A DNA stretch of 32,000 bases from positions 120,001 through 152,000 of the forward strand of contig CP064993.1 in the NCBI GenBank assembly GCA_016699955.1, given 5' to 3'. The position numbers and the translations under genes were made by a program. Within the stretch, counting starts at the first letter, position 1. Every line of letters begins with the position of its first letter. Under the pieces are notes generated by a model, which did not search any database, was not told the origin of the DNA, and worked only from the letters and a program-made list of their open reading frames with translations. Below, in pieces: positions 3,829 to 22,546 of the stretch. This DNA comes from Candidatus Saccharimonadota bacterium. Its GTDB lineage: Bacteria; Patescibacteriota; Saccharimonadia; Saccharimonadales; UBA4665.

Positions 3829-4752
3829 TTACCTCTGAATTTCGTTGCCGTACATGCGAGACTGTTCCTCGAGCTGCCTGTGAATGGCTGATAATTCGTA
3901 GCGCTTACCAACCCAAAACATTGCAAGCAGTAGCGGCAGCATGAAAAGTAGCGGCCACCAGATATAAACGACCTTTGTCGTGCCGCCACCGTTTGTACCA
4001 CCCTTGCTGCCTGTAGTACTCTGCGTAACATCCCCTGCCCCAACACCGACAAGCTGCAAAAATGCAGTGGCACCGGTAACATCTGTTGCTTTAACGACAA
4101 CCCTATAAATACCTGCTGATTTGTAAGTATGAGTGATATCAAACGTCCCCGCAAACGGTTGACTTTTTAGGTCGGCAGCAGTGCCATCTCCCCAGTCTAC
4201 GGTGATGGCATACGGTCCGCTACCGCCGCTGAGTATAATTGGCCATGTTAGAGACTGCCCAACCGGCGCGCCGAGTTTTGCCAAGTTACTTAGGAGGCTA
4301 ATTCGCTGACCAAAGGCTGCAAACTGATTATCCTGAAACGTCACCGTTACTTTGTTACTGTCTGGACCAGCTTGGTCAAGAGCATCGTACACCCGCGCAA
4401 TTAGGTCGTTTTGGCCGCCAAATAGGTCTACCTGGATACTGTAGCTCCCCCCTGCACAATCGGCCGAACCAATAAAAATGTCGTTGCTAAAAATTTTAAC
4501 TAGCAGCCCCGTCTTGCAGAGACCACTCACCGTTATCGGGATAGCGTCAAATGTCCGGCCTGATATTGGTGACGATATTGTCGCCGGCGTTGTTGGAGCA
4601 GGACTTGGAATCTTACCCTGTAAGCCGGTTGTGCCCGATTGGGTGGGGTTAGGGCTTCCCAACTGACCGTAGACCGGGGCGACCAAACTGATGCAAAGCA
4701 GAATGCTAAGTATGAGAAAAGGAAGGATGCGTATTGTTCGTTTTAGTGTCAT
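3829..4752 (-). CDS. Surface protein with N-terminal signal peptide, Ig-like region, PKD domain and C-terminal transmembrane anchor
   Basis: Signal peptide MTLKRTIRILPFLILSILLCISLVAPVYGQ. PKD-type signature ITVDWGDGTAADL...FDITHTYKSAGIYRVVVKATDVTGATA. C-terminal hydrophobic helix VVYIWWPLLFMLPLLLAMFWVGKRY followed by a charged tail. Confidence 0.75.
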   Translation of the reverse strand: MTLKRTIRILPFLILSILLCISLVAPVYGQLGSPNPTQSGTTGLQGKIPSPAPTTPATISSPISGRTFDAIPITVSGLCKTGLLVKIFSNDIFIGSADCAGGSYSIQVDLFGGQNDLIARVYDALDQAGPDSNKVTVTFQDNQFAAFGQRISLLSNLAKLGAPVGQSLTWPIILSGGSGPYAITVDWGDGTAADLKSQPFAGTFDITHTYKSAGIYRVVVKATDVTGATAFLQLVGVGAGDVTQSTTGSKGGTNGGGTTKVVYIWWPLLFMLPLLLAMFWVGKRYELSAIHRQLEEQSRMYGNEIQR

Positions 4753-4823
4753 ACTTTCGCGCTCATGTTTACCTTTAGCATAACGGAAACTTTGAACAAG
4801 TCATAGCCTTTGAGCTACTTTTT

Positions 4824-5819
4824 TTACCGACGATTTGCCTTTCGCACAACCTTTGCATTGTAGCGCTTGATTGCCCTTGGCAAGCCAATGATTGCTCCGA
4901 TTAGCCCCGCCAAAAGTAGAAGCCCAATAATAATGAAAGTCAGCGGAATCACCGTAAAGCTAGTTTTACCACTGAGGAGCTGGCCGTTTGCACCATAGCC
5001 AAAGTTGCCCTCAACAGTGTATTTACCCCACAGGCCGACTTTATCAAGCTTGACGCTAAATCGGCGGACGCTATCTGGTAGAACATTCCCCTTTGGCTCG
5101 CTGCTGTTTATTTCCACTGTTTGGACGATTTTTCCGCCTTTTTTCAAGACAACCTTACCAAATGGCTGCTCGTGCGCGTTGCCGTTGTTGGTAAACCGCG
5201 CAACAGCATAGAGGTTTTTATTGGAGGTGAAAAATGAGCTTCCTTTGTCTGCTTCTTCGCTTGTGCGAACATCAAAACTAGTCAGCTTCATGTTTTCTAT
5301 GATGTCACCGGGCACTTTCACGAGCATAAGCGAGCCAACACTGGCTGCAAGCGTAATATTGCGCCCCTGCTTACCTGATACAGGCAGGAATCGCACTGCG
5401 CCGTAGTAGCCACCAGCGGCAGCATCTTTAGGAATTGTGATTGTCACGGTTATTGTTTTGGACTTGCCGGAGGGCACAGTAACATTTGTCAGAGGACTTA
5501 TGTAACGCTTTAGACTATGACTCGGCGCAAATTTGTCGGCATCTAGGATTAGTGCTGGCTGTCCGAATTCGTCTTTGCCGGCAACAAAATCGTTGATAAC
5601 TGCTTGATATTCCGTCTCGGCGCCAGTAATGTTATTGACCGTGACATTTACTGTACGCACGCTGCCTGGCGCCATCACTAAGTCGGTTCTAACAGGCGAA
5701 ACGCGCAAACCACTTGCCGCGTCCTTTTGCTGCGCAAATGCTTGTGGCGCAAGAATTGCTATATTAAAAACAGTGGTGAGCGCCAGAAGTATCGCTGTAA
5801 ATCGTAACGTATAACGCAT
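4824..5819 (-). CDS. DUF916/DUF3324-like (CscA-like) cell-surface protein with C-terminal transmembrane anchor and basic tail
   Basis: The track ORF extends to 5849. I prefer the ATG at 5819 because it is preceded by AAGAGGGAAAT (Shine-Dalgarno) and gives a clean signal peptide MRYTLRFTAILLALTTVFNIAILAPQAFAQ. Two Ig-like halves: LRVSPVRTDLVMAPGSVRTVNVTVNNITG...GGYYGAVRF, then LMLVKVPGD...ARFTNNGNAHEQPFGKVVL...GKYTVEGNF. These are followed by the helix FIIIGLLLLAGLIGAIIGL and RAIKRYNAKVVRKANRR. This matches the remembered DUF916+DUF3324 architecture; not verified by HMM. Confidence 0.55.
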   Translation of the reverse strand: MRYTLRFTAILLALTTVFNIAILAPQAFAQQKDAASGLRVSPVRTDLVMAPGSVRTVNVTVNNITGAETEYQAVINDFVAGKDEFGQPALILDADKFAPSHSLKRYISPLTNVTVPSGKSKTITVTITIPKDAAAGGYYGAVRFLPVSGKQGRNITLAASVGSLMLVKVPGDIIENMKLTSFDVRTSEEADKGSSFFTSNKNLYAVARFTNNGNAHEQPFGKVVLKKGGKIVQTVEINSSEPKGNVLPDSVRRFSVKLDKVGLWGKYTVEGNFGYGANGQLLSGKTSFTVIPLTFIIIGLLLLAGLIGAIIGLPRAIKRYNAKVVRKANRR

Positions 5820-5880
5820 ATTTCCCTCTTTTTTTCTTATTATCTCCATTATGGTACCAGAAACGTAACCGTTTACAAAA

Positions 5881-5910
5881 GTGCTTTGTGGTGCTTTGTG
5901 GTGTTTTGTA
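5881..5910. repeat. Three tandem decamers GTGCTTTGTG GTGCTTTGTG GTGTTTTGTA
   Basis: Read directly from the sequence. Lies in the 161-nt gap between the 351-aa gene stop (5981) and the DUF916-like gene start, 60-90 nt upstream of the ATG at 5819. Confidence 0.8.
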
Positions 5911-5980
5911 GTCCTTCGTAAACTTTAAAGCCGCGTAACTAGTCCGTTTTTAGGCTGACTGGTGTGATATGCGTATCCGG

Positions 5981-7036
5981 CTAAAATGTGGCGTTTGCTA
6001 TGTAGGTAAACGTGCTCACATACACGCCTGGCGCCTGGTTAGCAGAAACATTAACTATGTAGGAAATAGTATACTTTGCTATGTCTGGGTTGATCGCTTG
6101 GACTAGTGTATCGCCATTGTTAAACATGTAGTAGTTGGGTTGGTTATAACTGGGAGCAATAGCAGATGAAATCAGCATGCCTTCCGGTTCTTGGCCAACA
6201 CTGGGCGCGCTATTTGCCCTAAGGTTGAGTCCAAATTGCGAAACACCCGTTCTGGAGACATCTGGACTAGCGAGCGCCGGGATGGTGTTGATGCCGGAGG
6301 TTAAAGTTGTACCTTGTGCGACAACCGTAAAGCCAAAGTCGGCGTTTGTGGCAACAATAAACTGCGTCTTTGCCGATGCCGTGCGGCTTGGCGCAAAATC
6401 TCCAAAGTCTATGTAATTTCCTTGGGCAGTGTTGCAATCTTGCCCCTGTATGGTGTTGGCTACACAAAACAGCAGATACGGCGGGACAACCGATTGCACA
6501 CTGACCGTGGCCGGCAATATGGCATACGCTAGGCCTGATCCATCTTTGCGAGGCCCCGTGGCGTCAATACTCGCAAAGGTTTCAAGCCTGCCATAGTACG
6601 TTCCTGCCGCTGAGGGATTAATAACAGACGCAATCTCAAACACAACTTGACCTGGAATACTCGCACCCGGTACTCTCGTTAAAATAAGCTCGTTGGCTGT
6701 TGTACTCGGGTGAATACTAAACCCAGTCATACCACTTTGTGCAATAAGCGCGGCGCCGAGGAAACTAAGCCCAGCTGGACCGCTGCACGGTTCTCCAGGA
6801 AACGGGTCTTCAATGCACAGTTGTAACCGGACTGAACCGACAAGACCAGCTGACTGCCCGGATAAACTTATCTTGTAGCGAGACGAGCTGCCTGCTACTG
6901 ATTCAGAAATTTGCAATTGCCTGCTCGCCAGGTTGGCAGCGACAACAGTTGATAAGGGCAGCGGCCCTGTTACGCTTAGTAACAAGGCCGCTACGAGACC
7001 GATTCCAGTTAGGGTGTGCAACCGGTTCAGGCGCAT
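5981..7036 (-). CDS. Secreted surface protein, paralogue family member (N-terminal module shared with the 409/410-aa proteins, C-terminal module shared with the 255-aa protein)
   Basis: ATG preceded by GGAGATATAATTC. Signal peptide MRLNRLHTLTGIGLVAALLLSVTGPLPLSTVVAA. Paired cysteines (LCIEDPFPGEPC, FCVANTIQGQDC). Shares YYGRLETFA with FYGRITTYA, QFGLNLRANSAPSVG with QFGLNLRNNATPNVG, and YTISYIVNVSANQAPGVYVSTFTYIANATF-stop with the neighbours. Confidence 0.8.
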   Translation of the reverse strand: MRLNRLHTLTGIGLVAALLLSVTGPLPLSTVVAANLASRQLQISESVAGSSSRYKISLSGQSAGLVGSVRLQLCIEDPFPGEPCSGPAGLSFLGAALIAQSGMTGFSIHPSTTANELILTRVPGASIPGQVVFEIASVINPSAAGTYYGRLETFASIDATGPRKDGSGLAYAILPATVSVQSVVPPYLLFCVANTIQGQDCNTAQGNYIDFGDFAPSRTASAKTQFIVATNADFGFTVVAQGTTLTSGINTIPALASPDVSRTGVSQFGLNLRANSAPSVGQEPEGMLISSAIAPSYNQPNYYMFNNGDTLVQAINPDIAKYTISYIVNVSANQAPGVYVSTFTYIANATF

Positions 7037-7061
7037 GAATTATATCTCCTCTGAGGTATCT

Positions 7062-8294
7062 TTAGAACGTACCGACTCCAATAAGGCTGAAGTATTCCGA
7101 ATAGATACCAGCTGGCGTTGTAGGTGAAGCAACCGCCGCAAATGTAATGGTGTTATTGACACTATTCGCCTGCTTCGGATCTCCACCACTGGTTTCAGCT
7201 ATTTTACTACCGTAGGTGCTGATGACGTTGTCATTGGCTGTGGCAGTGTCCATGATGTATGTGCTGCCTGCGCCAGACCAACGAGCGACTGCGGTGTTTG
7301 CGCCGGTACCGCCAGTTGCGGCCGTGCCGTTGCTTACGAAGGCACCGAATTCAGCTGTATTGTTTGTGAAAGCAATGGATGTTGCAGCACCAGAGTTAAT
7401 GGGAGGTATTTCACAGTTAGTACCACCGTCTCGGCTGAGGCCACCATTACCACCTGCACAGCTTGTGTTCGCGGCACGTAGGTACAGGGCATAGCCTTGT
7501 GAGGCGTTTGTGGAAAGCTGCGTGTAGATATTTGCTGAGGATGGGGTAGCTCCGGTGTAGCCCAGGACGTAGTCCGGTGAAGAACCAAGTGTAATAGCAG
7601 GGGCTGTTGCTGAGCCGCATGAGCTAGCAGCTGTCAAGTTATTGGCATTTGTAACAGCCACACCACCTGAGGTACAGAGCGACAATTGCTCCATGACGCG
7701 GGCGGTAACGGTGATAGTGTTAACCGTGCTCATGGCGACACCGCCGTAATCTACGTAGTTACCAGTGCTGGCTGCGCTAGCGTAAGTGCCGTAAGTAGCG
7801 TTTGCATAGGTAGTAATACGACCGTAGAAAGATCCGAGTGTGCTTGGGTTTGTAATGCCCGTAACTTCAAAGGTGAAAGCACCGGCAGATTGCGAGCTGG
7901 TATTTGTGAACTCCAAATGACCAGCCGTAAGTGTACCGAGCGACCAGGTGCCGTTTGCCGTTAGGCTGGCGGTAGAGACATCTAGGTCTGTTGGCGCCGT
8001 ACATGTGTCGTTAATGAGCGGCGAAGCGCTACAGAAATCGACAACAAAACTTTGCACGGCGGCTGCTGTTGTGAACTTAATTTTATAGGCAACGCTTGTA
8101 CCGCTACCGACACCACTAGGGATGTTGGCGTTGCCGCTGGGACCGGAATCGCTCAGCTGGATTGAGCGGAAGGTCAGCTGGGCGGCTGAGGCTTTTTGAT
8201 TGGTAACGAACACGGGAGCAACTGCTCCAACAAGTATCGCCGCAGCTGCAAACAAGGCGACTGGGCGCTTAAATGAGTTGCGAGTAATACTCAT
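7062..8294 (-). CDS. Secreted Ala/Thr/Ser/Gly/Asn-rich surface protein, tandem copy 1 (410 aa)
   Basis: ATG with GGAGA Shine-Dalgarno. Signal peptide ...AAAAILVGAVAPVFVTNQKASA. Three Cys pairs. C-terminus TTPAGIYSEYFSLIGVGTF-stop. Only 25 nt upstream of the next gene, so probably co-transcribed with it. Confidence 0.85.
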   Translation of the reverse strand: MSITRNSFKRPVALFAAAAILVGAVAPVFVTNQKASAAQLTFRSIQLSDSGPSGNANIPSGVGSGTSVAYKIKFTTAAAVQSFVVDFCSASPLINDTCTAPTDLDVSTASLTANGTWSLGTLTAGHLEFTNTSSQSAGAFTFEVTGITNPSTLGSFYGRITTYANATYGTYASAASTGNYVDYGGVAMSTVNTITVTARVMEQLSLCTSGGVAVTNANNLTAASSCGSATAPAITLGSSPDYVLGYTGATPSSANIYTQLSTNASQGYALYLRAANTSCAGGNGGLSRDGGTNCEIPPINSGAATSIAFTNNTAEFGAFVSNGTAATGGTGANTAVARWSGAGSTYIMDTATANDNVISTYGSKIAETSGGDPKQANSVNNTITFAAVASPTTPAGIYSEYFSLIGVGTF

Positions 8295-8353
8295 TATATC
8301 TCCTTAATTTTGTTTATTTTAGTAGTAACTTCAGAACTATACCACGCTTGTGT

Positions 8354-8389
8354 TTAAAAAAACAAGCCCCTTTTCAAGAAAGGGGCTTG
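8354..8389 (-). terminator. Rho-independent terminator downstream of the 8431..9660 gene
   Basis: Minus strand reads CAAGCCCCTTT-cttga-AAAGGGGCTTG followed by TTTTTTTAA. This is an 11-bp perfect stem, 42 nt after the stop codon. Confidence 0.75.
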
Positions 8390-8430
8390 GAGGCTGTGGA
8401 TAACTAGTTCGAGTCGAAACTCGCAATCGG

Positions 8431-9660
8431 CTAGAACGTACCCACGCCAATCAGGCTAAAATTCTGACTATATATACCGGCTGGAGTAATCGGAGAAGCA
8501 ACTGCCGCAAACGTAATGGTGTTGTTTACGCTGTCAGCCTGCTTCGGATTTCCACCACTGGTTTCAGCTATTTTACTACCGTAGGTGCTGATGACGTTGT
8601 CATTGGCTGTGGCAGTGTCCATGATGTATGTGCTGCCTGCGCCAGACCAACGAGCGACTGCGGTGTTTGCGCCGGTACCGCCAGTTGCGGCCGTGCCGTT
8701 GCTTACGAAGGCACCGAATTCAGCTGTATTGTTTGTGAAAGCAATGGATGTTGCAGCACCAGAGTTAATGGGAGGTATTTCACAGTTAGTACCACCGTCT
8801 CGGCTGAGGCCACCATTACCACCTGCACAGCTTGTGTTCGCGGCACGTAGGTACAGGGCATAGCCTTGTGAGGCGTTTGTGGAAAGCTGCGTGTAGATAT
8901 TTGCTGAGGATGGGGTAGCTCCGGTGTAGCCCAGGACGTAGTCCGGTGAAGGACCAAGTGTAATAGCAGGGGCTGTTGCTGAGCCGCATGAGCCAGCAGC
9001 TGTCAAGTTATTGGCGTTTGTAACGGCCACACCACCTGAGGTACAGAGTGACAGTTGCTCCATGACGCGGGCGGTAACGGTGATAGTGTTAACCGTGCTC
9101 ATGGCGACACCGCCGTAATCTACGTAGTTACCAGTGCTGGCTGCGCTAGCGTAAGTGCCGTAAGTAGCGTTTGCATAGGTAGTAATACGACCGTAGAAAG
9201 ATCCGAGCGTGCTTGGGTTTGTAATGCCCGTAACTTCAAAGGTGAAAGCACCGGCAGATTGCGAGCTAGTGTTTGTAAACTCCAAATGACCAGCCGTAAG
9301 TGTACCGAGCGACCAGGTACCGTTTGCCGTTAGGCTGGCGGTAGAAACGTCTAGGGCTGTTGGGGCCGTACAGTTGTCGTTAATGAGCGGCGATGCGCTA
9401 CAGAAATCGACAACAAAACTTTGCACGGCGGCTGCTGTTGTGAACTTAATTTTATAGGCAACGCTCGTACCGCTACCGACACCACTAGGGATGTTGGCGT
9501 TGCCGCTGGGACCGGAATCGCTCAGCTGGATTGAGCGGTAGGTCATTTGCGCTGCAGACGCAACTGAGGTCAGCAGCACGGGCATTGCTGCACCAACTAC
9601 TAACGCCAGCGCCGAAAGTGCGGCCGCTGGGCGCCGAAGTGCATTATAGTTGATATTCAT
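8431..9660 (-). CDS. Secreted Ala/Thr/Ser/Gly/Asn-rich surface protein, tandem copy 2 (409 aa)
   Basis: ATG with GGAGA Shine-Dalgarno. Signal peptide ...ALALVVGAAMPVLLTSVASA. The mature part is nearly identical to copy 1. C-terminus ITPAGIYSQNFSLIGVGTF-stop. Has its own terminator. Confidence 0.85.
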   Translation of the reverse strand: MNINYNALRRPAAALSALALVVGAAMPVLLTSVASAAQMTYRSIQLSDSGPSGNANIPSGVGSGTSVAYKIKFTTAAAVQSFVVDFCSASPLINDNCTAPTALDVSTASLTANGTWSLGTLTAGHLEFTNTSSQSAGAFTFEVTGITNPSTLGSFYGRITTYANATYGTYASAASTGNYVDYGGVAMSTVNTITVTARVMEQLSLCTSGGVAVTNANNLTAAGSCGSATAPAITLGPSPDYVLGYTGATPSSANIYTQLSTNASQGYALYLRAANTSCAGGNGGLSRDGGTNCEIPPINSGAATSIAFTNNTAEFGAFVSNGTAATGGTGANTAVARWSGAGSTYIMDTATANDNVISTYGSKIAETSGGNPKQADSVNNTITFAAVASPITPAGIYSQNFSLIGVGTF

Positions 9661-9708
9661 GTCTATTTCTCCTTCTGTTGTAAAGAGTTAGTTAATATTT
9701 ACATCACT

Positions 9709-9737
9709 AATGTATCATCCTGGTTTGTTGTATGCAA
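9709..9737 (-). promoter_or_regulatory. Candidate sigma70-type promoter for the 8431..9660 gene
   Basis: Minus strand: TTGCAT (9737-9732), 17-nt spacer, TACATT (9714-9709), about 50 nt upstream of the ATG at 9660. Confidence 0.3.
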
Positions 9738-10002
9738 TAGTACTTACAGATAAAATGATAGTATTGTTGTAAGAAATAATACTAATCGTTGTCATAAATA
9801 ATATTCCCGCCACTCTACACCAGTCATTTGATGATAATCGTGTACTGCTTATCGCTAATGCCTGAGTGTCAAAATTACTCCTGAAGGCTTCGCTCTCCCT
9901 CGCCAAGCGCCTGAAGACGCTAACAGCCGTACCTACACACCGAGCTGGAGTCACTTAATCATAAGTGCTCCTTTGATTGCGGCCATGGCTAGGGGCGGTT
10001 TG

Positions 10003-10770
10003 TTAAAACGTCGATGTCGCAACAAGCGATTGGTTTGTGGTATATGTGCCACCAGGTGTGATTTCAGTAACGTTCATAATGTATGAGATTGTATAGTCAG
10101 TGTACCCCGAGCTGCTAAGGGACTCGGCAATAACATCACCATCGACATATTTGAAGTTATCGGCTGTACCGTAAGTGGCTGCGTACGTTCCGAACGAAAA
10201 TGTACCGTCCGGTTGCTGCACAGGATCGGCTCCAACATTTGGTGTTGCATTGTTGCGCAGATTTAAACCAAACTGCTCAGTCCCAGTCGCAATTGTGCTT
10301 GCAACACTAAGGGGGGTGATTTCATGGCCAGCATTTGTAGGAGCCGACCCATGAATTTGTACTACATAGCCGTGAGCAAGGTACGATTTAACAGTGAAGG
10401 TAGCGTAGTCATACCCTGTCGTCGAGGGGCTAATATCTCCCAGGTTAACGCCTGCTTTTGTGAGGTCTATTTCGAGCCAAGGAGTGCGGTCTGTGTTAAA
10501 CCCTGCCTGTGCTTGGTAGGCGGTTCCTTTGGTGTTACCGACTGTCAGTTCACCGGCTGACTGTTTTGCACAATACTGATTCCCTGAGCAAGCATTTAGC
10601 TCTCCACCCGTTCCAAAGAATGTTTCACTTACCCCGTACTGGTTGCCGCTACAGGCCTGTTGATCCGGGTTGGTGGCGCACTGTGCGAACGCTACACTAG
10701 CCTGAAACAAAACGCCAAAAAACAGAGCAGTGAGGGACAACCAAGCAAGCATGTGTTTTTTGCGTTTCAT
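10003..10770 (-). CDS. Secreted surface protein (255 aa), smallest member of the paralogue family (C-terminal module only)
   Basis: The track ORF runs to 10911, but that N-terminus overlaps the divergent gene start. The ATG at 10770 gives the ideal signal peptide MKRKKHMLAWLSLTALFFGVLFQASVAFAQ. Duplicated CSGNQY motif. C-terminal EQFGLNLRNNATPNVG ... YTISYIMNVTEITPGGTYTTNQSLVATSTF-stop. Confidence 0.75.
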   Translation of the reverse strand: MKRKKHMLAWLSLTALFFGVLFQASVAFAQCATNPDQQACSGNQYGVSETFFGTGGELNACSGNQYCAKQSAGELTVGNTKGTAYQAQAGFNTDRTPWLEIDLTKAGVNLGDISPSTTGYDYATFTVKSYLAHGYVVQIHGSAPTNAGHEITPLSVASTIATGTEQFGLNLRNNATPNVGADPVQQPDGTFSFGTYAATYGTADNFKYVDGDVIAESLSSSGYTDYTISYIMNVTEITPGGTYTTNQSLVATSTF

Positions 10771-10887
10771 AATACTCGTGTTTATTTTCTCCCATTTTGC
10801 AGTTTGACGCAAATACTGCAACATTATTATTCCTTTTACTGAGCTAGTGAGGTATGATAACAGTAAGCATAAGCACGAGAGAAATAT

Positions 10888-11907
10888 ATGGCAGAAGACA
10901 ATGAAAAGCAAAATGACGAGAATTTGGCCGCTCCAGGTTCCAGCAGCCTTGAGTCAGCTGATGACACAAGCCCACTAGAGTCAACGGTCGATGACAACAG
11001 TCTCGAAAACGACGCCTCCAGCACGGGGAAAATAGATGACACCCCTGTCTCTGACGAAAAAAAAGGGCCAATGCTTCAGCGCTTCGGCAAAAAAATCAAT
11101 ATCTATTTTCTGCTATTTTTACTGCTGCTCTGTATCGCTGGCGGCATCATTTTAGTCACCTACCTTGCGAGCAAAAAACAAGAGAAGAGTACTGTACAAA
11201 CTCAGTCTCTTAGCCAAGATACCCTGAAGCAACTTGCTACGAGCGACGTAACGGTCGGACAACCAAAACAGGTGTTGAGTGTGCAAAGTAACGCAGTTTT
11301 TGCCGGTAAAGTACTTATACGCGATAGCTTGGAGGTGGCTGGCCCTATTCAGGTCGGCGGTAGCCTCAGCGTACCAGGGATTACTGTGTCTGGGAACAGT
11401 ATTTTTGAGCAAATACAAGTCAATAAGAACCTTACTGTTCAAGGCGACATTTCTGTTCAAGGACAGCTTACGGTGCAGAAAGGTTTGAGCGTCGCTGGTG
11501 GCGGTACGTTTAGCGGCTCGCTCACAGCTCCGGCAATAACGGTAAATGCACTGCAGCTCAACGGCAACTTAACGCTTACACGGCACATCATCATTGGCGG
11601 ATCAACACCCGACCGAGATAACGGAACAGCCTTAGGCGCTGGTGGCACGGTTGCGCTTAGCGGTTCAGATACGGCTGGCAGTATAAACATAAACACTGGC
11701 TCAGGGCCGGTAGCTGGTTGTTTCGCAACGCTTAACTTCACCCAAAAGTACAATTCAACGCCAAATGTCATCGCCACACCGGTAGGATCTAACGCTGGTT
11801 TGGTCGGTTATTACGTCAATCGCTCAACATCGAGTTTTAGCGTCTGTGCCGCAAACACCCCCCCTGCAAATGCCAGCTTTGGCTTTGATTATTTCATTGT
11901 AGAATAA
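10888..11907 (+). CDS. Type-II membrane-anchored protein: acidic disordered N-terminus, one TM helix, extracellular beta-helix-like repeats and a compact C-terminal domain
   Basis: TM helix INIYFLLFLLLLCIAGGIILVTYLA. Repeats such as LEVAGPIQVGGSLSVPGITVSGNSIFEQIQVNKNLTVQGDISVQGQLTVQKGLSVAGGGTFSGSLTAPAITV. The C-terminal FATLNFTQKYNSTPNVIATPVG...SSFSVCAAN...FGFDYFIVE resembles an H-type-lectin-like pattern (weak, from memory). Confidence 0.7.
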   Translation: MAEDNEKQNDENLAAPGSSSLESADDTSPLESTVDDNSLENDASSTGKIDDTPVSDEKKGPMLQRFGKKINIYFLLFLLLLCIAGGIILVTYLASKKQEKSTVQTQSLSQDTLKQLATSDVTVGQPKQVLSVQSNAVFAGKVLIRDSLEVAGPIQVGGSLSVPGITVSGNSIFEQIQVNKNLTVQGDISVQGQLTVQKGLSVAGGGTFSGSLTAPAITVNALQLNGNLTLTRHIIIGGSTPDRDNGTALGAGGTVALSGSDTAGSININTGSGPVAGCFATLNFTQKYNSTPNVIATPVGSNAGLVGYYVNRSTSSFSVCAANTPPANASFGFDYFIVE

Positions 11908-12677: not shown

Positions 12678-13001
12678 TTAGACATCCAAAAACACGACAA
12701 CGCTGTCAGACTTTACGTGCATAATGCCGTTTTGGATGCGGATTTTTTCTTCGTCTTTGTCGGTGCGCACCACAATGTCGCACGGAACAAGCAAGGTAAT
12801 AAAGCTGTGATGATGTGGCAGAATGTCAAAAGGACCGGTCTGGTTCTGGGCACTGATGCTTATGGCTTGACCCTCAAAATACACCTTGTAGGGAGCATAC
12901 ACCTTGACAAACATGTGGCCATAAGTTGCTTGAGTTGTTACGCCTTGAGCGCTACTGTGCTCAGCTGCTTCGCCCTGCCCATCACCTTGATTGGTTGCCA
13001 T
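12678..13001 (-). CDS. atpC: F1 ATP synthase epsilon subunit, beta-sandwich domain only
   Basis: Last gene of the atp operon, starting 1 nt after the atpD stop. VKVYAPYKVYFEGQAISISAQNQTGPFDILPHHHSFITLLVPCDIVV...NGIMHVKSDSVVVFLDV matches the epsilon N-terminal domain pattern. The protein ends there, at 107 aa. Confidence 0.8.
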   Translation of the reverse strand: MATNQGDGQGEAAEHSSAQGVTTQATYGHMFVKVYAPYKVYFEGQAISISAQNQTGPFDILPHHHSFITLLVPCDIVVRTDKDEEKIRIQNGIMHVKSDSVVVFLDV

Positions 13002-13002
13002 G

Positions 13003-14310
<1,308 letters not shown>

Positions 14311-14455: not shown

Positions 14456-15325
14456 TCATGCTGCTGCTCCGGCTTTGCTTTTTTTCATACCGTTTATGAT
14501 TTCCTTGAGACGCTCGTCTTTGACACCACGGCGAGCGCGGTTATATGCAAGGTGTAAATCGGATTTTTCTTCATCGGCGCGCTGATGACTGGCACTCATT
14601 GCTCGGAAACGCGAGGCATACTGCGCGAGCTTTGACTGGAGTATTAGTTGGCCGAGTGCAATTTTCATCATAGAGCGTTCTAGATGCGCTGCAACCGCAA
14701 AACTTGTCGGTTCAAAAATATAGTTTGCTTCACTAATGACTTCGTCGGGTTTGTCGCTCACCAAGCCAGCGGTACGCACCGCCATAGACAGCGATATACG
14801 CTTTACTTCTTGGTTCATAAGCGATATATACTGCTGGTAAAAGACGCTGCACTTTTTGTATTCCTGAACTTCACGGATGATAGGTGCGACGTTAATATTT
14901 TTGTCTTTACTCGGCAGCTTGTAGTACTTGCGAAACGACACGCCACGTTGACTTAGCTGCATAGCGCCGTGGTGGCCAATCACAATGATGTCGTTTTTTT
15001 CCTTGTCATAGGCCTCAAGCATAGCATGAACGAGTTTCTGGTCGATATCGCCACTAAACCCGCCCTCTGCGGTAATAATGATGTAGAGCTCCTTGTCCAG
15101 AATGACTTTGTTTTTATCTGACTCTTCGCGCCCAAAACTAAACAGGCTATCGACTCGCAGCTGCGTGTAGATTTTCCAAAGTTCATCAAAAAATTTGGTC
15201 GACTCGAGCACTTGATTTTTCGTTTGAGCTATCCGCATGCTCGCTATACCTTCGAAGACACTCGTCAACTCAACCAATGTAGACATGCTTGCTTCATCTT
15301 TGGCTATTTCGTTTGGGTGTCTCAT
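14456..15325 (-). CDS. atpG: F1 ATP synthase gamma subunit
   Basis: Positioned between alpha and beta. N-terminal [13 protein letters not shown] and C-terminal [22 protein letters not shown] coiled-coil helices are typical of gamma. Its ATG overlaps the atpA stop by 4 nt. Confidence 0.85.
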
Positions 15326-17298
15326 GGCTTTTTCTCCGGCTTGACAGCGTCCATCACTTTGCCCGTTGCCGTCTTCGCTTTTTGCTTTTCTAACTCTACC
15401 GACATCATTTCATCCACTTTTTGCTCTTCAGTATCTGGCTGAACGTTTTTTTCGGCCGGCTTATCATCACTACGAGCGGATTTGTTTTCCTTTGAGAAAA
15501 GCGAGTGCACAAAATCGGACTTTTTTTCCTCGTGAGCGGGCACGGCTGGGACTGAAACGGCTGGCTCGGGCACATCGTCTTGCTTTATTTCTGGTTGTTC
15601 ATTGGTAGATTCATCCGCTGTTTCTTCGGCAGGGGGTTCTTTTACCGGTTCGTCTGAATTATTGTCGCTCGTATTCTGTTCGTCAGGTGGTTCATCCACC
15701 GGTTCTGCTGCCGGCATTTGCGGCGTGGCGGGCTTCTCAGCCGGTGCTTCTTTAAGGGGGCTTTCAGCCGAAGTTTCTTCTGGTTTTTCTACTGGTTTAT
15801 TTTCGGCGATTTCAGATACTTTTTTCTCGTCAGAAGGTTCGCTGCCGCCCTTTTTTTCTTTCGTTTCGGCTTTTGGTGCAAATTTAACGCACTCTTTCAT
15901 TAGCATGTCGTGAACTTTTTGATAATCCTCGTCTTTTTCCACCTTCTTGGCGAAGTCATTCCCATTTAGTTTCAGCGAGTTAATGTCGAGAATCGCACCC
16001 TCTTCTAGGTTGAGTACAATGTCGAGCATCAGCTGCTGTGCCATCAGCGAAAAAGTATCTCCCGGTGCCTGCGTCAGCAGCTCAAACACTCGCTTACCCG
16101 CTGCGAGAGCTTTTTTGGCTTCGAGTCCAAGCTCAGAGCCAAAGTGCGAAAATTCTTCTGCCTGACGGTAGGTTGCAAGCATTTTGAGGGTTTGGGCGGC
16201 CAGTTCCTTCTGGCGTTTATTGTGTCCGACTCCACCGGCGCGGGTGACACTGAGACCAATATTGAGGGCCGGACGAATACCGTTTCGGAATGTGTCCATG
16301 TCAAGAATCCACTGGCCATCCGTAATCGACATGATGTTCGTCGGTAAATACGCGGTAATGTCGCCGTTGGCAGCATGCACTACCGGTATGGACGTTAGGC
16401 ATCGCCCGGTGCTATCAAGCCGTCCCGCGCGCTCTAGCAAGCTTGAGTGAGCATAAAACATATCGCCAGGGTAACTGTCTCGGCCTGGACTAACGCCAGA
16501 AAGCAACGCCACTTCTCGGTAGGCATGGGCGTGACTGGTTAAATCATCGTAGACAATGATGACATCTTGGTCACACTTTTGCCATAAGTATTCTGCCATG
16601 GCGCAAGCAACATAGGGCGCAATATAGCTCATTATGAGCGACTCAAACATTGTGCTCACTACGACTATAGCTTTTTCCATTCCTCCGTTTTCCTGGAGCC
16701 GGGTCAGAAGGGTGTCCACATCACTGCGACGCTTAGCAATTAAACAGTACACCACAATTTGGTCAGTGTTTTTCTGGTTTATAGCGAGCTGCGTCACCAC
16801 GGTGCTCTTGCCCGATTTGCTATCACCCAGTAGCGCCATGCGCTGACCGCGCACCATCGGAAACAGTGAGTCAATAGCCGTTACACCGCTTTCCAGCTGA
16901 TCTTCGACCAGCTTACGAGCGTACAGTGGCGGTGCTGTATTAAACACTGGCCAAACTGCATCAGCCGGAATCGGCCCCTTACCGTCCAAGGCATCACCCG
17001 TAACTGATACAACCCGTCCAACAAAATCTTTCCCAACCTTGCTAACGAGCTCCTGGTGCTGCAAGACTGCCACAATACCAACACTAAGTGGCTCTGCACC
17101 AAGATGCAGAACCAGTACATAGTCCTGTTGCACTTGGTTAATAAAGCCCTTACTACCATCTTCGAACATTACAAGCGCATGAATAGTACAGGGCTGCAAT
17201 CCACTCACCTGCACGAGGAACCGATCGACGGCAATTACCTCGCCAACTGGCTTGCCCGCCTCCACTAACTTTTCAAAATGCTGGTTACTAAAACTCAT
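15322..17298 (-). CDS. atpA: F1 ATP synthase alpha subunit with a long disordered C-terminal extension
   Basis: Walker [10 protein letters not shown], then [44 protein letters not shown] and ITDGQWILD. The core of about 473 aa is followed by about 185 aa rich in E/K/P/D/A/S (15325-15879). One uninterrupted ORF of 658 aa. Confidence 0.9.
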
Positions 17299-17840
17299 GC
17301 CGCTACCTCCACAGGAGCCTTTTGCGGTACGGGGGAGGCTACTTCTTGAACGTTTGTTTCGCGCAGCCGTTTCATGAGCAGTTCGCGGCTACCGGCAAAT
17401 GATTTACTGAGTGACATGTCAAAATAGCGATTTGTTGTTCTTAAGACACATCCCGCCCCAATCCCTGGCTGCAACCCAACCGCAATCAGCACGTGGGGAT
17501 GTATGTGCGTTCGCAGCCAAGAAATTAGTTTTGCCAGAAAAACCGGAGATGGGTCGGCACTGAAGCTCATGTGAATTTTGGGAGCATCTTTGCGCAGCAG
17601 CTTTAAAAATTCGAGCAAACTGCTCCGAGCATGAGCGTCTCGCAAATCGAGCTTATTCGTTTCCGCAAGCTGATCCAGTAATGCGCTCAGTTTTGGTAGC
17701 TGAACGCTGGTGCCGGTGCGTATTGTTTCACTCATAAGTGAACTTTCAAGACGTTCGAGCTCACGAATCAGTCTTCCTAGGTCTACCATGCCCACAACTC
17801 CTATCGGTAGTACCGGTGCGGCCTGACTGTCAGGCACCAT
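17295..17840 (-). CDS. atpH: Putative ATP synthase delta (OSCP) subunit
   Basis: Positioned between b and alpha, with 4-nt and 11-nt overlaps. 181 aa. The C-terminal [29 protein letters not shown] resembles the OSCP C-terminal motif. The N-terminal half is divergent. Confidence 0.6.
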
Positions 17841-18453
17841 GGTTAATATCCTGAATTATTGCTTCGCGGTTAGCTTCTAGGTCAGCCAAAATATATTCAA
17901 GCTGATCATTCAAGTCAATTTGGTCGCCAATAGCCGCAAGCACATAATGGTTGATTATATCGGTCATATTTTGCTCAAACCGTTCAACTAGCTGTTGTTT
18001 TTCGGCAACAATTTGAGCCTGGACTTGCTGACCAAGCTGCGCACGCTGTTCTTCAATAGCTGTATTCGTTTTTTGGATTGAGTCAATCGCAAGCTGCTTT
18101 GCGTCATTAATAGATTGCTCGTATTTGGCAAATTCTTCCTTAAGATTACGCGTAATCTCATCTTTCATGTACTCGTTCAGCTGGCTAGTGGTCAAACGTA
18201 AATCTTGCTGGAGAAACATTGCATTTTCGGAAATGATTTTTTCGAAATGCAGCCTACCCCTGTTACGAAGCTCTTCGCGGAACGTATCGTTAAAAATATG
18301 CTCGACGTCTTCCTCGGCAGCTTTTTCTATGTCGCTAGTGACATCTTTATTTTTTTTGACGCCACCGTTACCGACGCGCACAGCCAACCACATAAACGCC
18401 ACGGTTGCCGATAGCAGACTGCCAAGTATGAGTGCAAGCTGCCAAGTTGTCAT
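17830..18453 (-). CDS. atpF: ATP synthase Fo b subunit
   Basis: One N-terminal TM helix (WQLALILGSLLSATVAFMWLAV) followed by a long charged coiled-coil-like region. Sits immediately upstream of delta. GGTGGGGA Shine-Dalgarno. Confidence 0.7.
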   Translation of the reverse strand: MTTWQLALILGSLLSATVAFMWLAVRVGNGGVKKNKDVTSDIEKAAEEDVEHIFNDTFREELRNRGRLHFEKIISENAMFLQQDLRLTTSQLNEYMKDEITRNLKEEFAKYEQSINDAKQLAIDSIQKTNTAIEEQRAQLGQQVQAQIVAEKQQLVERFEQNMTDIINHYVLAAIGDQIDLNDQLEYILADLEANREAIIQDINHGA

Positions 18454-18484: not shown

Positions 18485-19318
18485 TTATAACTTTAATAAT
18501 AAGTATATCGCGACTAGCCCGATAACAAAAACGATTAACCCCAGAACCACAACCTGGATCAGTCCTCGCAAAATTGACTTCTTGGCTAGCGGATTACGAC
18601 CAATGGACACGAGACTGCTACGGACACCGCCGTACAGAAGACTACCCGTCATAAAAATGGTAATGAGCAAAATTGCCAGACTTATGTAGAGTCGCACAGT
18701 GCTGACCGGCTTACCGGCAATACTCTCGCCAGACTTGCGAAGGAACGAAGGCACCGGTGGACCACTGACAGATACGGCAAGCGGGTTTCGGGAAATACCA
18801 ATGTCTATTTGCACAAACCCTATTGAAACTTGCTTATTACCGGAAGAGGTAGCGAGGGCGGCGTTGCCGCTCACATTTTTTGTGCCGTCAAAACTGCCCA
18901 GCGCCTTACCTAAGATTACGTTTTGACCGGCGTCCGCTTTCATACCGATTCCGTCAAGGGCAGAAATGCTAATGATATCCCCGCTTTTTATGGAACCGTT
19001 CTGGGTGCTCACGAGCGCTTCATACTTGCCGTTTGAGGCCACATAGACTTGATTGGTACTGTTGTCGCCACCCAGCGAGACCACCGTATCATTTGCAGAC
19101 ACAACAACGCCATGCATGGCTTTATCGGTTTTGTTGGTAAGCGCCGTGACTTTGCGACTGTCTTTCGGGTCAAGCATAACAATCATGCCCTTTTGCACTA
19201 TACCCGTTACACCGTAGCCTTGCGAGACTGTTTGAGCGTGGACAAGAGCAGGCGCAAGGAGCATGCCTAACATACCACTCAGGACAACCAGACGATACCA
19301 AATTTGTCGTCGAAGCAT
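18485..19318 (-). CDS. Secreted-domain protein with a C-terminal two-helix hairpin resembling an Fo c subunit (RNP loop, no carboxylate); first gene of the atp operon
   Basis: Signal peptide MLRRQIWYRLVVLSGMLGMLLAPALVHAQ. Soluble domain of about 175 aa. Then LYISLAILLITIFMTGSLLYGG-VRSSLVSIGRNPLAKKSILRG-LIQVVVLGLIVFVIGLVAIYLLLKL. Occupies the position usually held by atpE, 31 nt upstream of atpF. Confidence 0.7.
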   Translation of the reverse strand: MLRRQIWYRLVVLSGMLGMLLAPALVHAQTVSQGYGVTGIVQKGMIVMLDPKDSRKVTALTNKTDKAMHGVVVSANDTVVSLGGDNSTNQVYVASNGKYEALVSTQNGSIKSGDIISISALDGIGMKADAGQNVILGKALGSFDGTKNVSGNAALATSSGNKQVSIGFVQIDIGISRNPLAVSVSGPPVPSFLRKSGESIAGKPVSTVRLYISLAILLITIFMTGSLLYGGVRSSLVSIGRNPLAKKSILRGLIQVVVLGLIVFVIGLVAIYLLLKL

Positions 19319-19327
19319 TTCTATTCA

Positions 19328-19357
19328 AGTATAACCGTTTTATCAGCGGCGTCACAA
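19328..19357 (-). promoter_or_regulatory. Candidate promoter of the atp operon giving a near-leaderless transcript
   Basis: Minus strand: TTGTGA (19357-19352), 18-nt spacer, TATACT (19333-19328), then only 9 nt to the ATG at 19318. No Shine-Dalgarno. Confidence 0.3.
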
Positions 19358-19406: not shown

Positions 19407-20237
19407 ATGTCAATTACAAAAGCAATCATCCCTGTTGCCGGCTGGGGTACACGCCGGTTACCAATTACAAAGGCTGTTGAAAAATGCATGCTACCAATTG
19501 GTAATCGGCCAATTGTTGATTATGTGGTTCAGGACTGTGTTACAGCAGGGATTACCGACATTTACTTCGTCGTTGGCGAACAAAGCGAACAACTTCATAC
19601 CTACTACCGCGAAAATGTCGAGCTCACCGATTATCTCCTGAGAAACGGCAAACAGGACATGTTGCCCCTCATCCAGACACCACTTGTCCGTTTTCACTAC
19701 ATTGTTCAGCCAAGTTACGGCAAATACGGTACCGCCGTGCCCGTAGACCTCACAATGCCCTACATCAATGAAGGCGAATCGGTAGTTGTTGTCATGGGAG
19801 ATGACTGTCTCTACAACCGAGATGGTAGTTCGGATATTGCTCGGCTGGTTGCCGCTACTCCAGATGGCCAAAGTGCTATTTTGGGCGTACCTATCCCCGA
19901 CGGTGACACCGCTATCCAGCGCTACGGTCACATTGTCTCTGACGATAAGGGCAATCTTGTACGGATTGTTGAACACCCCGACCCCTTGCCGAAACAGTTT
20001 ATAAAAAATGTCAGCAAGTACGTCCTCAACTACGACATGCTGAAAGCAGTTAGTGGGTACGTGGCTCAAGAAATTGACACAGGCAAAGAGTATTACATAT
20101 TCCACCCCTTCCAGCAGGTGATTGAACAGGGTGGCATAATGAAGGTTGTCGCTGCTACCGGCCAATACCTAGATGCAGGAACTGTCGACGGCTGGCTCCA
20201 CGCCAACCAAACCGTTATCAATAATTCCGCAAGCTAG
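19407..20237 (+). CDS. galU: UTP--glucose-1-phosphate uridylyltransferase-like sugar nucleotidyltransferase
   Basis: N-terminal KAIIPVAGWGTRRLPITKAVEKCMLPIGNRPIVDYVVQD matches the GalU-family signature A-G-x-G-T-R-x-L-P-x-T-K. Later VVMGDD and RIVEHPDP blocks. Confidence 0.7.
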   Translation: MSITKAIIPVAGWGTRRLPITKAVEKCMLPIGNRPIVDYVVQDCVTAGITDIYFVVGEQSEQLHTYYRENVELTDYLLRNGKQDMLPLIQTPLVRFHYIVQPSYGKYGTAVPVDLTMPYINEGESVVVVMGDDCLYNRDGSSDIARLVAATPDGQSAILGVPIPDGDTAIQRYGHIVSDDKGNLVRIVEHPDPLPKQFIKNVSKYVLNYDMLKAVSGYVAQEIDTGKEYYIFHPFQQVIEQGGIMKVVAATGQYLDAGTVDGWLHANQTVINNSAS

Positions 20238-20368: not shown

Positions 20369-21514
20369 TTATTTACTTTTTGTTATCTCTGTTAGAGCAT
20401 GCACGCATTTATCAATATCGGCTTTAGTCGTAGAACGACCCATGGTTATACGTAAGCTGCTGCGAGCCGCCTCGTCGCTCATGCCCATTGCGCCAAGAAC
20501 ATGGCTCGGCTGCTCGCTACTAGCGCTACAAGCAGACCCGGCAGCGGCAAGTACCCCTTGCAGCTCTAGCTCTAGCAGCACGCGTTCGTTATCATACCCA
20601 GGCAAGGTAATATGGATGTTGTTCGGAAGCCGATTGCTTAGTGAACCATTTACGATTGCACTTGGGATTTTTTGGCTCAAGAGGCGAATTGCTTCATTTT
20701 TCACTTGGTTCAGCCTTTTTGCCTCAACATGGCGCATCGTTTGAGCCTTACTGAGCGCTACCGCAAAACCGATAGCCCCAGCAACATTTTCAGTACCGCT
20801 GCGCAAACCTTGTTCCTGGCCACCACCGCGAATCAGTGGCGAAAGTTTGACATGCCTGGCGGCGTACAAGGCGCCAGTTTGCTTTGGGCCATACATTTTT
20901 CCACCATTTAGTGTCATGAAATCAACACCAAGCTTTTCAACGTGCAGATCGAGATAGCTTGCCGCTTGGCAAGCGTCGGTATGGAAATACAGAGGGAGTG
21001 CATTACCCTGTCTTTTTCTTTCTGTCTTAATGTCGTTTATAAGCATAGAGATTTGGCGCAGAGGCTGGATAGTACCGACTTCATTATTGGCATACATAAC
21101 ACTTACAAGCACAGTGTCGTCGGCAATTTTCTGCCGTAAACTGTCCATATCTACCCTACCCTGCTTTGTCGAAAGCGCAACGTAGCAATTGAACTGTCTG
21201 GCGGTTGCTAAAACAGATTCATGCTCGAGTGCACTTACCGTAACGGAGCAATTCGGAAATTTGGCCATAACTCCTGCAATCGCCAAATTATTTCCTTCAG
21301 TTCCCCCACTTGTAAAAATAACTTCGGTCGGCCTAGCTCCTAGACACTGCGCAACCCTCCCCCGAGCTGCTTCAAACGCTTCCCTTGCCTGCCGCGCGGG
21401 CAAATAAGTGGCCGAGGGGTTGTAAAAAACATCAGAAAAATACGGCTGCATCGCAGCCAAAACTCCCTCATCAACCGGCGTCGCCGCCGCATGATCCAAA
21501 TATACGTATTTCAT
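20369..21514 (-). CDS. Cysteine desulfurase (class V aminotransferase, NifS/IscS family)
   Basis: YLDHAAATP, FTSGGTEGNNLAI, HTDACQA, a PLP-lysine region LNGGKMYGPKQTGALY, RSGTENVAG and a catalytic-Cys loop GSACSASS. Confidence 0.9.
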   Translation of the reverse strand: MKYVYLDHAAATPVDEGVLAAMQPYFSDVFYNPSATYLPARQAREAFEAARGRVAQCLGARPTEVIFTSGGTEGNNLAIAGVMAKFPNCSVTVSALEHESVLATARQFNCYVALSTKQGRVDMDSLRQKIADDTVLVSVMYANNEVGTIQPLRQISMLINDIKTERKRQGNALPLYFHTDACQAASYLDLHVEKLGVDFMTLNGGKMYGPKQTGALYAARHVKLSPLIRGGGQEQGLRSGTENVAGAIGFAVALSKAQTMRHVEAKRLNQVKNEAIRLLSQKIPSAIVNGSLSNRLPNNIHITLPGYDNERVLLELELQGVLAAAGSACSASSEQPSHVLGAMGMSDEAARSSLRITMGRSTTKADIDKCVHALTEITKSK

Positions 21515-21532
21515 AGATGGTATTGTAGCCGA

Positions 21533-21916: not shown

Positions 21917-21918
21917 CT

Positions 21919-22533: not shown

Positions 22534-22546
22534 ATGTTACATAATT

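Follow-up and report, generated by a model that had tools for sequence, protein, structure and literature searches.

F1-like ATPases whose partner is something other than an a/c ion channel have so far been studied functionally only in mycoplasmas, namely in the gliding motor and in the MIB-MIP antibody-cleavage system. The mycoplasma Type 2 and Type 3 "F1-like X0" clusters contain alpha-, beta-, gamma- and epsilon-like genes and genes for a protein with 12 transmembrane (TM) helices and a small cytoplasmic protein; a further product of these clusters combines a signal peptide and an ectodomain with two TM helices at its C-terminus (MMCAP2_0577, MMOB1650) (PMC12994834). Type 2 is the G1-ATPase of the Mycoplasma mobile gliding motor, MMOB1610-1670 (PMC12994834, PMC3369863). 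Type 3 (MMCAP2_0575-0581, MSC_0618-0624) is required for the surface MIB-MIP system (PMC12994834). In the AlphaFold3 model of Type 3, gamma and epsilon are placed on the 12-TM protein and the two-TM protein is distal, for which the authors suggest a stalk-like role; the two-TM protein was co-purified with the ATPase under cross-linking (PMC12994834). The present analysis concerns a seven-gene operon of F-type ATPase-like genes from a Candidatus Saccharimonadota bacterium (GCA_016699955.1) and, in particular, its first gene, here called gene X (product, X). The whole stretch of DNA that was analysed, 32,000 nucleotides of contig CP064993.1 (positions 120,001 to 152,000), is referred to as the window, and coordinates are positions in it.

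Besides the F1-like X0 enzymes already known from mycoplasmas, odd F-type ATPase genes of Saccharimonadia have been glimpsed twice in the literature. In Omnitrophota, a "non-respiratory" ("symbiotic") F-type ATPase adjoins type-4a pilus genes, and its beta subunit reportedly groups with that of Saccharimonadia (Seymour et al. 2023, PMC10066038). Furthermore, ATP synthase subunit genes are reported to consistently adjoin pam operons, the operons of the Pam pilus, across Candidate Phyla Radiation (CPR) lineages (bioRxiv 10.64898/2026.03.03.709456). The saccharibacterium Southlakia epibionticum has a complete atpZ-B-E-F-H-A-G-(DUF4406)-D-C operon (SEML1_0349-0358; PMC10633639), in which a matches PF00119 at 8e-45, c matches PF00137 at 1e-14, and b matches PF00430 at 1.3e-25 (PMC10633639 supplement). 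The Southlakia gene table contains no second ATPase set, and all the components were dispensable in transposon sequencing (PMC10633639). Southlakia appears to be without an operon of the kind described here. In the literature searched, no description was found of the membrane subunit presented here or of its carboxylate-free c-like hairpin, nor of the retention of b-like and delta-like subunits with the 12-TM subunit absent.

Gene X is interpreted here, with moderate confidence, as encoding the membrane ("X0") subunit of a second F1-like ATPase, non-respiratory and conserved across Saccharimonadia. The operon consists of seven minus-strand open reading frames (ORFs) packed head to tail:

18485..19318, minus strand: gene X, an ORF of 277 aa, first gene of the operon
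17830..18453, minus strand: b-like peripheral-stalk subunit, 207 aa, with one N-terminal TM helix and then a long helical region
17295..17840, minus strand: delta/OSCP-like subunit, 181 aa
15322..17298, minus strand: F1 alpha-like subunit, 658 aa, matching PF00006 at 2.6e-67
14456..15325, minus strand: F1 gamma-like subunit, 289 aa, matching PF00231 at 6.3e-31
13003..14307, minus strand: F1 beta-like catalytic subunit, 434 aa, approximately 25-30 residues under the usual length
12678..13001, minus strand: epsilon-like subunit, 107 aa, matching PF02823 at 9.4e-14 over residues 30-105

The stop of gene X and the start of the b-like ORF are separated by 31 nt, and among the later genes there are several overlaps of 4-11 nt. 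Neither the 32-kb window nor the ±10 kb around 80 related loci yielded a gene for an a or c subunit in a search that combined a c-subunit hidden Markov model (HMM) and an a-subunit motif scan of 8,512 ORFs with Pfam scans of the main window ORFs; in the source genome this search covered the 32-kb window. An earlier reading of this DNA from its letters alone (the sequence-only reading) had described gene X as heading an atp-like operon, 31 nt from the b-like gene and with neither atpB nor atpE in the operon, and the ORF calls and the HMM and motif scans agree with this description.

The operon shares several features with the mycoplasma Type 2 and Type 3 clusters. Both are seven-gene clusters with alpha-, beta-, gamma- and epsilon-like genes and without a or c, and X has the exact layout of their protein with a signal peptide, an ectodomain, and two TM helices. 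Both occur in a reduced, host-dependent bacterium, where the cluster adjoins genes of a surface system. In contrast to the mycoplasma clusters, the window operon has b-like and delta-like genes and lacks the 12-TM and small cytoplasmic subunits. Its alpha and beta score higher against canonical models than against the mycoplasma models MSC_0618/0619 or glide_MMOB1660/1670 (MSC_0618_beta, 357.7 against a cut-off of 570; MSC_0619_alpha, 246.6 against 520; glide_MMOB1670, 325.7 against 850). The ectodomain of X also differs, in that it is small (approximately 150 aa) and phage beta-barrel-like. Homology of X to the mycoplasma X0 subunits was tried and rejected: 25 homologues scanned against NCBIfam at E<=10 gave no such match.

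Compared with the canonical operon of Southlakia, which belongs to the same phylum, the window operon shares the gene order that follows the membrane genes, from b through delta, alpha, gamma and beta to epsilon. The Southlakia operon, however, contains atpZ, a, c, and a clear b, whereas the window operon has X in place of a and c and a barely recognisable b. The Southlakia beta gene is 1377 nt (approximately 458 aa) and its epsilon gene 426 nt (approximately 141 aa), whereas beta and epsilon of the window operon have 434 and 107 aa. The Omnitrophota enzyme is similar by description: it is an F-type ATPase homologue beside pilus genes in ultra-small, host-associated bacteria. The pilus there is of type IV, whereas that in the window is probably of the donor-strand-exchange (Pam-like) kind.

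When one genome of each GTDB species was scanned, relatives of X turned up in at least 171 species, and the best 80 loci were examined. All informatively named relatives of X are Saccharibacteria, and a search from a distant member of the family likewise named Saccharibacteria only. The 80 loci are almost all from Saccharibacteria or from Saccharimonadales metagenome-assembled genomes (MAGs), with a few labelled "uncultured bacterium", "bacterium" or "Patescibacteria group bacterium". All 80, as far as their contigs reach, keep the gene order of the window (X, b-like, delta-like, alpha, gamma, beta, epsilon), with the identity of X down to 42%. The same seven genes occur in two distant loci (L081 and L082, from NCBI and JGI assemblies), in which X is approximately 31% identical in the best tblastn segment and the flanking genes are entirely different from those of the window. 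The gene lists of these two loci contain no PF00119 or PF00137 gene, and neither in these two nor in the 80 loci is a multi-TM gene conserved within or next to the operon.

Thus X homologues are linked to atp-like genes in every locus that extends far enough. The sequence-only reading had named two findings that together would speak against it: a lack of profile-level similarity to c subunits, and homologues that are never linked to atp genes. Because both were required and the linkage holds, that reading is not overturned on this count. One of the loci (L077, DATLCF010000001.1) is a 562-kb contig titled "Nevskiaceae bacterium" with a full X-type operon; this MAG is probably mislabelled or mis-binned. 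Upstream of the operon in the window (20369-23416, minus strand) are genes for a class-V aminotransferase (NifS-like), a 127-aa protein without a Pfam match, and a TatD-type hydrolase. Of the 80 loci, 75 keep the first of these, 66 the second and 49 the third, which shows how strongly these small genomes preserve gene order, unrelated genes included.

The catalytic subunits retain the motifs of F1. Of 65 orthologues of the beta-like subunit, 61 contain GGAGVGKT and 62 contain GERIRE; the alpha-like subunit conserves both the Walker A motif (P-loop) and, in the arginine-finger region, SVTR[AV]G. Judging from these motifs, the F1-like part is likely to be active. All four F1-type subunits nevertheless miss the NCBIfam equivalog cut-offs: alpha scores 375.6 against 484 (TIGR00962), beta 410.7 against 462.85 (TIGR01039), gamma 88.4 against 194 (TIGR01146), and epsilon 41.9 against 67. 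The beta-like subunit is consistently approximately 434 aa and is roughly equidistant from the solved F1 betas (best PDB match, 2qe7_D, 349 bits; G1-ATPase beta of M. mobile, 9io5, 274 bits). The epsilon-like subunit consists of the beta-sandwich only and lacks the C-terminal helical domain, which inhibits hydrolysis in canonical enzymes; its orthologues are mostly 100-115 aa. It should be added that the C-terminal approximately 200 residues of alpha (15322-15960, minus strand) form a low-complexity tail that is acidic and rich in Glu, Lys and Pro. The length of alpha ranges from 475 to 686 aa among the orthologues, with the tail length varying widely, and such a tail on an F1 alpha seems unusual.

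The matches of the b-like subunit are faint (ATP-synt_B, PF00430, E 0.056; alt_F1F0_F0_B, E 0.0063), and its family profile gave no b-subunit match in the PDB. A single delta-like sequence has no Pfam match, but the profile of 21 orthologues gave OSCP/delta in 15 of its 18 PDB matches (best E 0.018), with the C-terminal-domain motif aligned; the delta-like orthologue in L081 has a faint PF00213 OSCP match. The mean column identity is 69% for b-like, 59% for X, and 36% for delta-like. The b-like subunit is the most conserved non-catalytic subunit, with 53 invariant positions in 21 species, and contains a near-invariant stretch, IFNDEFREELRNRGRLHFEKI...NAMFLQQDLRLTT, approximately 25 residues past the TM helix. 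This stretch suggests a specific conserved contact near the membrane.

Because the F1 scores are below the cut-offs, beta has 434 aa, epsilon is without its C-terminal domain, and b barely matches PF00430, the operon is read as encoding a second ATPase. It is probably a distinct, conserved seven-gene F1-like unit and not an ordinary synthase with a swapped piece, and X is probably not a modified subunit of an ordinary ATP synthase. Three known identities were tried for the operon and rejected. A canonical F1Fo operon does not fit, as a and c are absent from the operon and alpha, beta, gamma and epsilon are all below the equivalog cut-offs. Against the N-ATPase models (alt_F1F0), beta scores 371 where 752 is required and alpha 314 where 750 is required, and AtpQ, AtpR, a and c are missing from the operon. 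The scores against type III secretion and flagellar ATPases are far under those of the F1 models.

The features of X are as follows:

19235..19318, minus strand: signal peptide, residues 1-28 (...ALVHA, followed by QT), with an RR n-region, a hydrophobic core, and a V-H-A cleavage-type site
18788..19234, minus strand: exported beta-rich domain, residues 29-177, all-beta in the AlphaFold2 (AF2) model and similar to phage modules in Foldseek
18776..18796, minus strand: first ISRNPLA motif, residues 175-181, in the exported part; N178 and P179 invariant, consensus I-[SA]-[HR]-N-P-[LI]
18488..18700, minus strand: two-helix membrane hairpin, residues 207-277, from AF2 and Foldseek
18584..18601, minus strand: invariant loop G240-R-N-P-L-A245, predicted to be cytoplasmic, from alignments of homologues and orthologues

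The AF2 model of X is composed of a helix (residues 2-25), an all-beta domain (approximately 30-177), two short helices, and the two-helix hairpin. In the 25 aligned homologues A28 and Q29 are nearly invariant, and the signal peptide would be cleaved after A28. Single-sequence scans of X gave no Pfam, NCBIfam or PDB match. The fold of the exported domain is similar to those of phage beta-barrel modules (DUF2190, preneck appendage barrel, and Sf11/BB1 capsid accessory proteins): in Foldseek its PDB matches at E 3e-4 are the capsid proteins of Sf11 and BB1, and its BFVD matches at E 1e-8 are the "preneck appendage protein barrel", DUF2190, and the Mtd N-terminal domain. PF23982 (XM1_gp53_minor_capsid, cut-off 27 bits) leaves X itself unmatched and gives 26.6 bits for the homologue P0086 and 28.1 bits for P0091. 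Unlike these phage modules, the domain of X belongs to a cellular ATPase operon and is joined to a membrane hairpin. The X family had 560 homologues in one search, and in a second search 7,094 clusters (50% identity) at E<=1e-3 and 542 at E<=1e-30; with these numbers the family is far beyond chance.

The hairpin is the part of X that resembles the c subunit of F-type ATPases (PF00137). In the AF2 model its helices (207-241 and 243-276) are each approximately 35 residues long and are connected by a tight loop, and the hairpin folded alone with 30 diverse homologues reached a predicted local distance difference test (pLDDT) score of 96. As in c subunits, two long antiparallel helices with their termini outside would enclose a tight polar cytoplasmic loop, the loop of X is R-N-P, and the gene directly precedes the b gene. 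The orientation, with the N-terminal domain outside and the loop in the cytoplasm, is suggested by the signal peptide, and in this predicted topology the GRNP loop region would be the sole cytoplasmic part of X. The predicted hairpin superposes on solved c subunits with a root-mean-square deviation (rmsd) of 1.2-1.7 Å: when the hairpin alone was searched against the PDB with Foldseek, every one of hits 1-38 was an F-type c subunit. The top match, 9itt_I, has a TM-score of 0.80/0.88 and an rmsd of 1.2 Å over 67 aligned positions, at E 0.05, which is not significant. In the whole-model search the C-terminal part of X also matched F-type c subunits (best 9itt_I, TM-score 0.88, rmsd 1.2 Å).

The loop is the most constrained part of the hairpin. 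VSIGRNPLAKK is present in X, and GRNPLA is invariant across the 25 aligned homologues. GRNP is invariant in 77 orthologues of other species and occurs in every loop-retaining representative among the 148 listed (clusters at 50% identity). The R-Q/N-P loop of c subunits is the docking surface for gamma and epsilon, and mitochondrial c subunits carry an R-N-P loop (ARNPS, SRNPS).

The ion site is missing. No conserved mid-membrane Asp or Glu was found in helix 2 among the 25 homologues, the 77 orthologues, or the 148 listed representatives, and the residue 18 positions past the Pro, the counterpart of E. coli D61, is L261. The sole polar position of helix 2, Q255, varies among Q, E, K and R and sits at the membrane edge, not in mid-membrane. 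The GxGxGxG motif is absent from helix 1, which is rich in Ile, Leu and Phe and has a lone GG near its cytoplasmic end. X thus differs from F-type c subunits in having no conserved helix-2 carboxylate among its orthologues and no helix-1 GxGxGxG, in the signal peptide and approximately 150-residue exported domain ahead of the hairpin, in the absence of an a subunit gene nearby, and in giving no significant profile match.

These results bear on several claims of the sequence-only reading. The proposed R-[QN]-P-like polar loop in a two-helix hairpin stands, GRNP being invariant in all homologues that retain the loop. The c-subunit topology and shape it proposed are matched by the AF2 hairpin and its superposition on c subunits, and helix 1 does lack GxGxGxG, as it had noticed. 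Its statement that helix 2 has no ion-site Asp or Glu also holds, but the polar residue that it named as Q254 is Q255, at the membrane edge. The second ISRNPLA motif that it reported in the exported part is real (residues 175-181, with N178 and P179 invariant in the aligned homologues). This motif lies in the predicted exported part, approximately 65 residues ahead of the cytoplasmic IGRNPLA, and might be left over from an internal duplication or serve as a functional motif in its own right.

As there is no a subunit in the operon and no membrane carboxylate in X, ion translocation of the a/c type is not expected. X is the only membrane protein of the operon besides the b-like subunit, and GRNP is its only predicted cytoplasmic surface and is positioned like the loop of c; for this reason, an X oligomer is proposed to lie under gamma and epsilon. 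In the favoured interpretation, alpha3beta3 would hydrolyse ATP and drive gamma and epsilon, and the b-like and delta-like subunits would form a peripheral stalk, anchored via the single TM helix of the former. X would be exported via its signal peptide and anchored by its long c-subunit-shaped hairpin, with the N-terminal beta domain outside. It would associate with F1 and oligomerise, probably as a ring, and its GRNP loops would dock the foot of gamma and epsilon, as the R-Q/N-P loops of c subunits do. ATP-driven torque or conformational change might then pass via X to the exported domains and on to the cell surface. Such force transfer follows the model for the mycoplasma Type 2/3 F1-like X0 ATPases. 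The obvious candidate client would be the adjacent, probably Pam-type pilus cluster, which is described below.

A more specific form of this model is speculative and seems unlikely as it stands. X would be a carboxylate-free c-ring-like rotor with a crown of phage-like beta domains outside and a b/delta stator. It would serve as a transmembrane drive shaft that gives torque at the surface, for example by assembling, rotating or tensioning the Pam pilus, and its output would be extracellular mechanical work, not ion transport.

Several points weigh against the favoured interpretation. The first group concerns the relation to c subunits. The E-values of the Foldseek hairpin hits are 0.05-1 and not significant, and these statistics are weak because the hairpin fold is simple and small and c subunits dominate such folds in the PDB. 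None of 28 hairpins matched PF00137 even at E<=10 in a Pfam scan, and the hairpin HMM found no c subunit in the PDB at E<=10. Comparison by hhalign with seven c subunits gave a probability of 2%, or 9.8% with a more diverse hairpin profile. The hhalign alignment was in register over 72 columns, and its score of 19.7 was higher than those of all 300 column-shuffled controls (mean 9.3, standard deviation 2.1, maximum 18.7), but this control is lenient because shuffling destroys the TM-loop-TM layout that is common to any two-TM hairpin. A small hmmsearch of the hairpin against c subunits gave 1-9 bits, and in NCBIfam one of 25 homologues gave a faint "subunit C" match (E 0.16). The homology to c subunits that the sequence-only reading had raised is thus not borne out at the profile level. 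X is c-subunit-like in shape, topology, loop and gene position, and sequence homology is not demonstrable. Membership in the c-subunit family was rejected, since the carboxylate, the glycine motif and the profile match all fail. Furthermore, helix 1 is bulky (Ile, Leu, Phe) and without GxGxGxG, so that tight packing like that of a c-ring is not assured.

The second group concerns the partners of X. The 12-TM protein, which contacts gamma and epsilon in the mycoplasma models, is absent in and beside the window operon. The pilus genes are weak evidence of a functional link, because unrelated upstream genes are conserved as well, and the two most distant loci, L081 and L082, have no pilus genes downstream. 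Finally, a canonical F1Fo would have to coexist with the operon in the source genome, which is seen here over the 32-kb window.

One alternative is that the operon encodes the sole F-type ATPase of the cell, with atpB and atpE elsewhere. X would be an accessory, assembly or regulatory subunit (AtpI-like or c-ring-associated), and the low scores would reflect fast evolution in the CPR. Several bacterial groups have their F0 and F1 genes at separate loci, and the six genes from b-like to epsilon make a full set of F1 and stalk subunits. That a and c genes do exist in such organisms, and that the search for them in the source genome covered the 32-kb window, would also agree with this account. 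Southlakia, however, keeps a and c with its own b, delta, alpha, gamma, beta and epsilon in one canonical operon (PMC10633639). In the proteome of Ca. Mycosynbacter amalyticus, alpha (QHN42722, 55.3 kDa) and beta (QHN42726, 50.2 kDa) are abundant (bioRxiv 10.64898/2026.03.03.709456). These proteins are canonical-sized, whereas the window beta of 434 aa would be roughly 48 kDa by estimate, and their ids are approximately 550 away from those of the pam genes (QHN43268-43274). Together with the ATPase genes reported beside pam, this distance suggests two ATPase sets in M. amalyticus, if the ids follow gene order. An epsilon without the regulatory C-terminal domain and a b-like subunit that hardly matches PF00430 also argue against a sole synthase, as does the reported grouping of Saccharimonadia beta with a "non-respiratory" clade (PMC10066038). 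A split operon is regarded as improbable.

Another alternative, equally improbable in our view, places X in the F1-like complex but outside a rotor ring. Its TM helices would anchor the stalk or hold the complex at a surface structure, and the partner of gamma and epsilon would be a membrane protein encoded elsewhere, comparable to the 12-TM protein of mycoplasmas. The distal position and stalk-like role suggested for the two-TM protein in the Type 3 AlphaFold3 model (PMC12994834) are in line with this possibility, and so is a helix 1 without the small-residue packing motif of c-rings. The operon, however, is already supplied with stalk proteins (b-like and delta-like), conserved multi-TM genes are missing both from it and next to it, and the absolute invariance of the cytoplasmic GRNP loop would be left without an obvious explanation. 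The least probable account is that X is an envelope or pilus-related protein merely co-transcribed with the ATPase and that its R-N-P loop is like that of c by coincidence: X does lack significant sequence similarity to any ATPase subunit, its N-terminal domain is phage-module-like, the neighbourhood is rich in surface proteins, and gene order is kept here even for unrelated genes, but X is immediately upstream of b-like in 82 loci, to approximately 31% identity, including L081 and L082, where the flanks differ completely and no pilus genes follow, its most conserved segment is cytoplasmic and not surface-exposed, and proteins built in the same way are encoded by two independent F1-like clusters of mycoplasmas, that of Type 3 having been co-purified with the ATPase under cross-linking (PMC12994834).

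If X is indeed the membrane subunit of a second F1-like ATPase, a large branch of the CPR has an independent version of this kind of machine, with a far simpler membrane part: one small protein with a hairpin like a c subunit stripped of its ion site. As the peripheral stalk is still recognisable, it would be an attractive minimal system for F1-driven extracellular work. Surveys of saccharibacterial genomes would then be warned not to take alpha and beta genes of this kind as evidence of chemiosmotic ATP synthesis. The same interpretation would also provide a testable candidate for the "ATP synthase components" beside the operon of the Pam pilus, which is currently thought to need no dedicated energy source.

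The other features around the operon are as follows:

19407..20237, plus strand: divergent NTP_transferase (GalU-like) gene, upstream of gene X
19328..19357, minus strand: weak sigma-70-like promoter match, TTGTGA-18-TATACT, 9/12 positions, just 5' of gene X
10888..11907, plus strand: bactofilin-like membrane protein, 339 aa, Bactofilin match at E 3.8e-5
3829..10911, minus strand: probable Pam-type pilus cluster, from signal peptides, shared C-termini, Pfam and layout

An 88-nt intergenic region separates gene X from the divergent GalU-like gene. The ORF and its NTP_transferase match bear out the sequence-only reading, which had described such a region followed by a divergent plus-strand gene. 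The promoter match in this region is only suggestive because the region holds no more such sites than shuffled sequence.

Downstream of epsilon, among the 55 loci with enough sequence, the bactofilin-like gene is present in 53 and pilin-like genes in 51. The bactofilin-like protein has an acidic N-terminus, one TM helix and a beta-helical region, and its gene and the operon lie on opposite strands. This protein probably corresponds to what has been called the "tail fibre-like protein" in the Pam neighbourhood, and it may be functionally linked to the operon. The pilus cluster encodes four secreted pilin-like proteins (302, 409, 410 and 351 aa) with a shared ...TPAG.Y...GTF C-terminus, a 341-aa two-domain putative chaperone with WxLIP/Fn3 matches and a C-terminal TM helix, and a 307-aa PKD-domain protein with a C-terminal TM helix. 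This layout matches that of the pam operon of Ca. Mycosynbacter amalyticus (bioRxiv 10.64898/2026.03.03.709456). A PDB sequence search of the window pilins gave no match to PamA or PamB, whose entries are presumably absent from the copy searched. The operon and the pilus may be functionally linked, as a working hypothesis.

Two of the pilin-like genes lie in tandem (7062-8294 and 8431-9660, both on the minus strand), and their proteins are 92% identical. These two copies differ chiefly in the signal peptide, a pattern that suggests recent duplication or gene conversion. Finally, an ORF of more than 770 aa at 1-2316 on the minus strand, open at the window start, combines a signal or anchor sequence at the N-terminus with a linker rich in Pro, Thr and Gln and with repetitive, beta-rich sequence, and looks like another surface protein.

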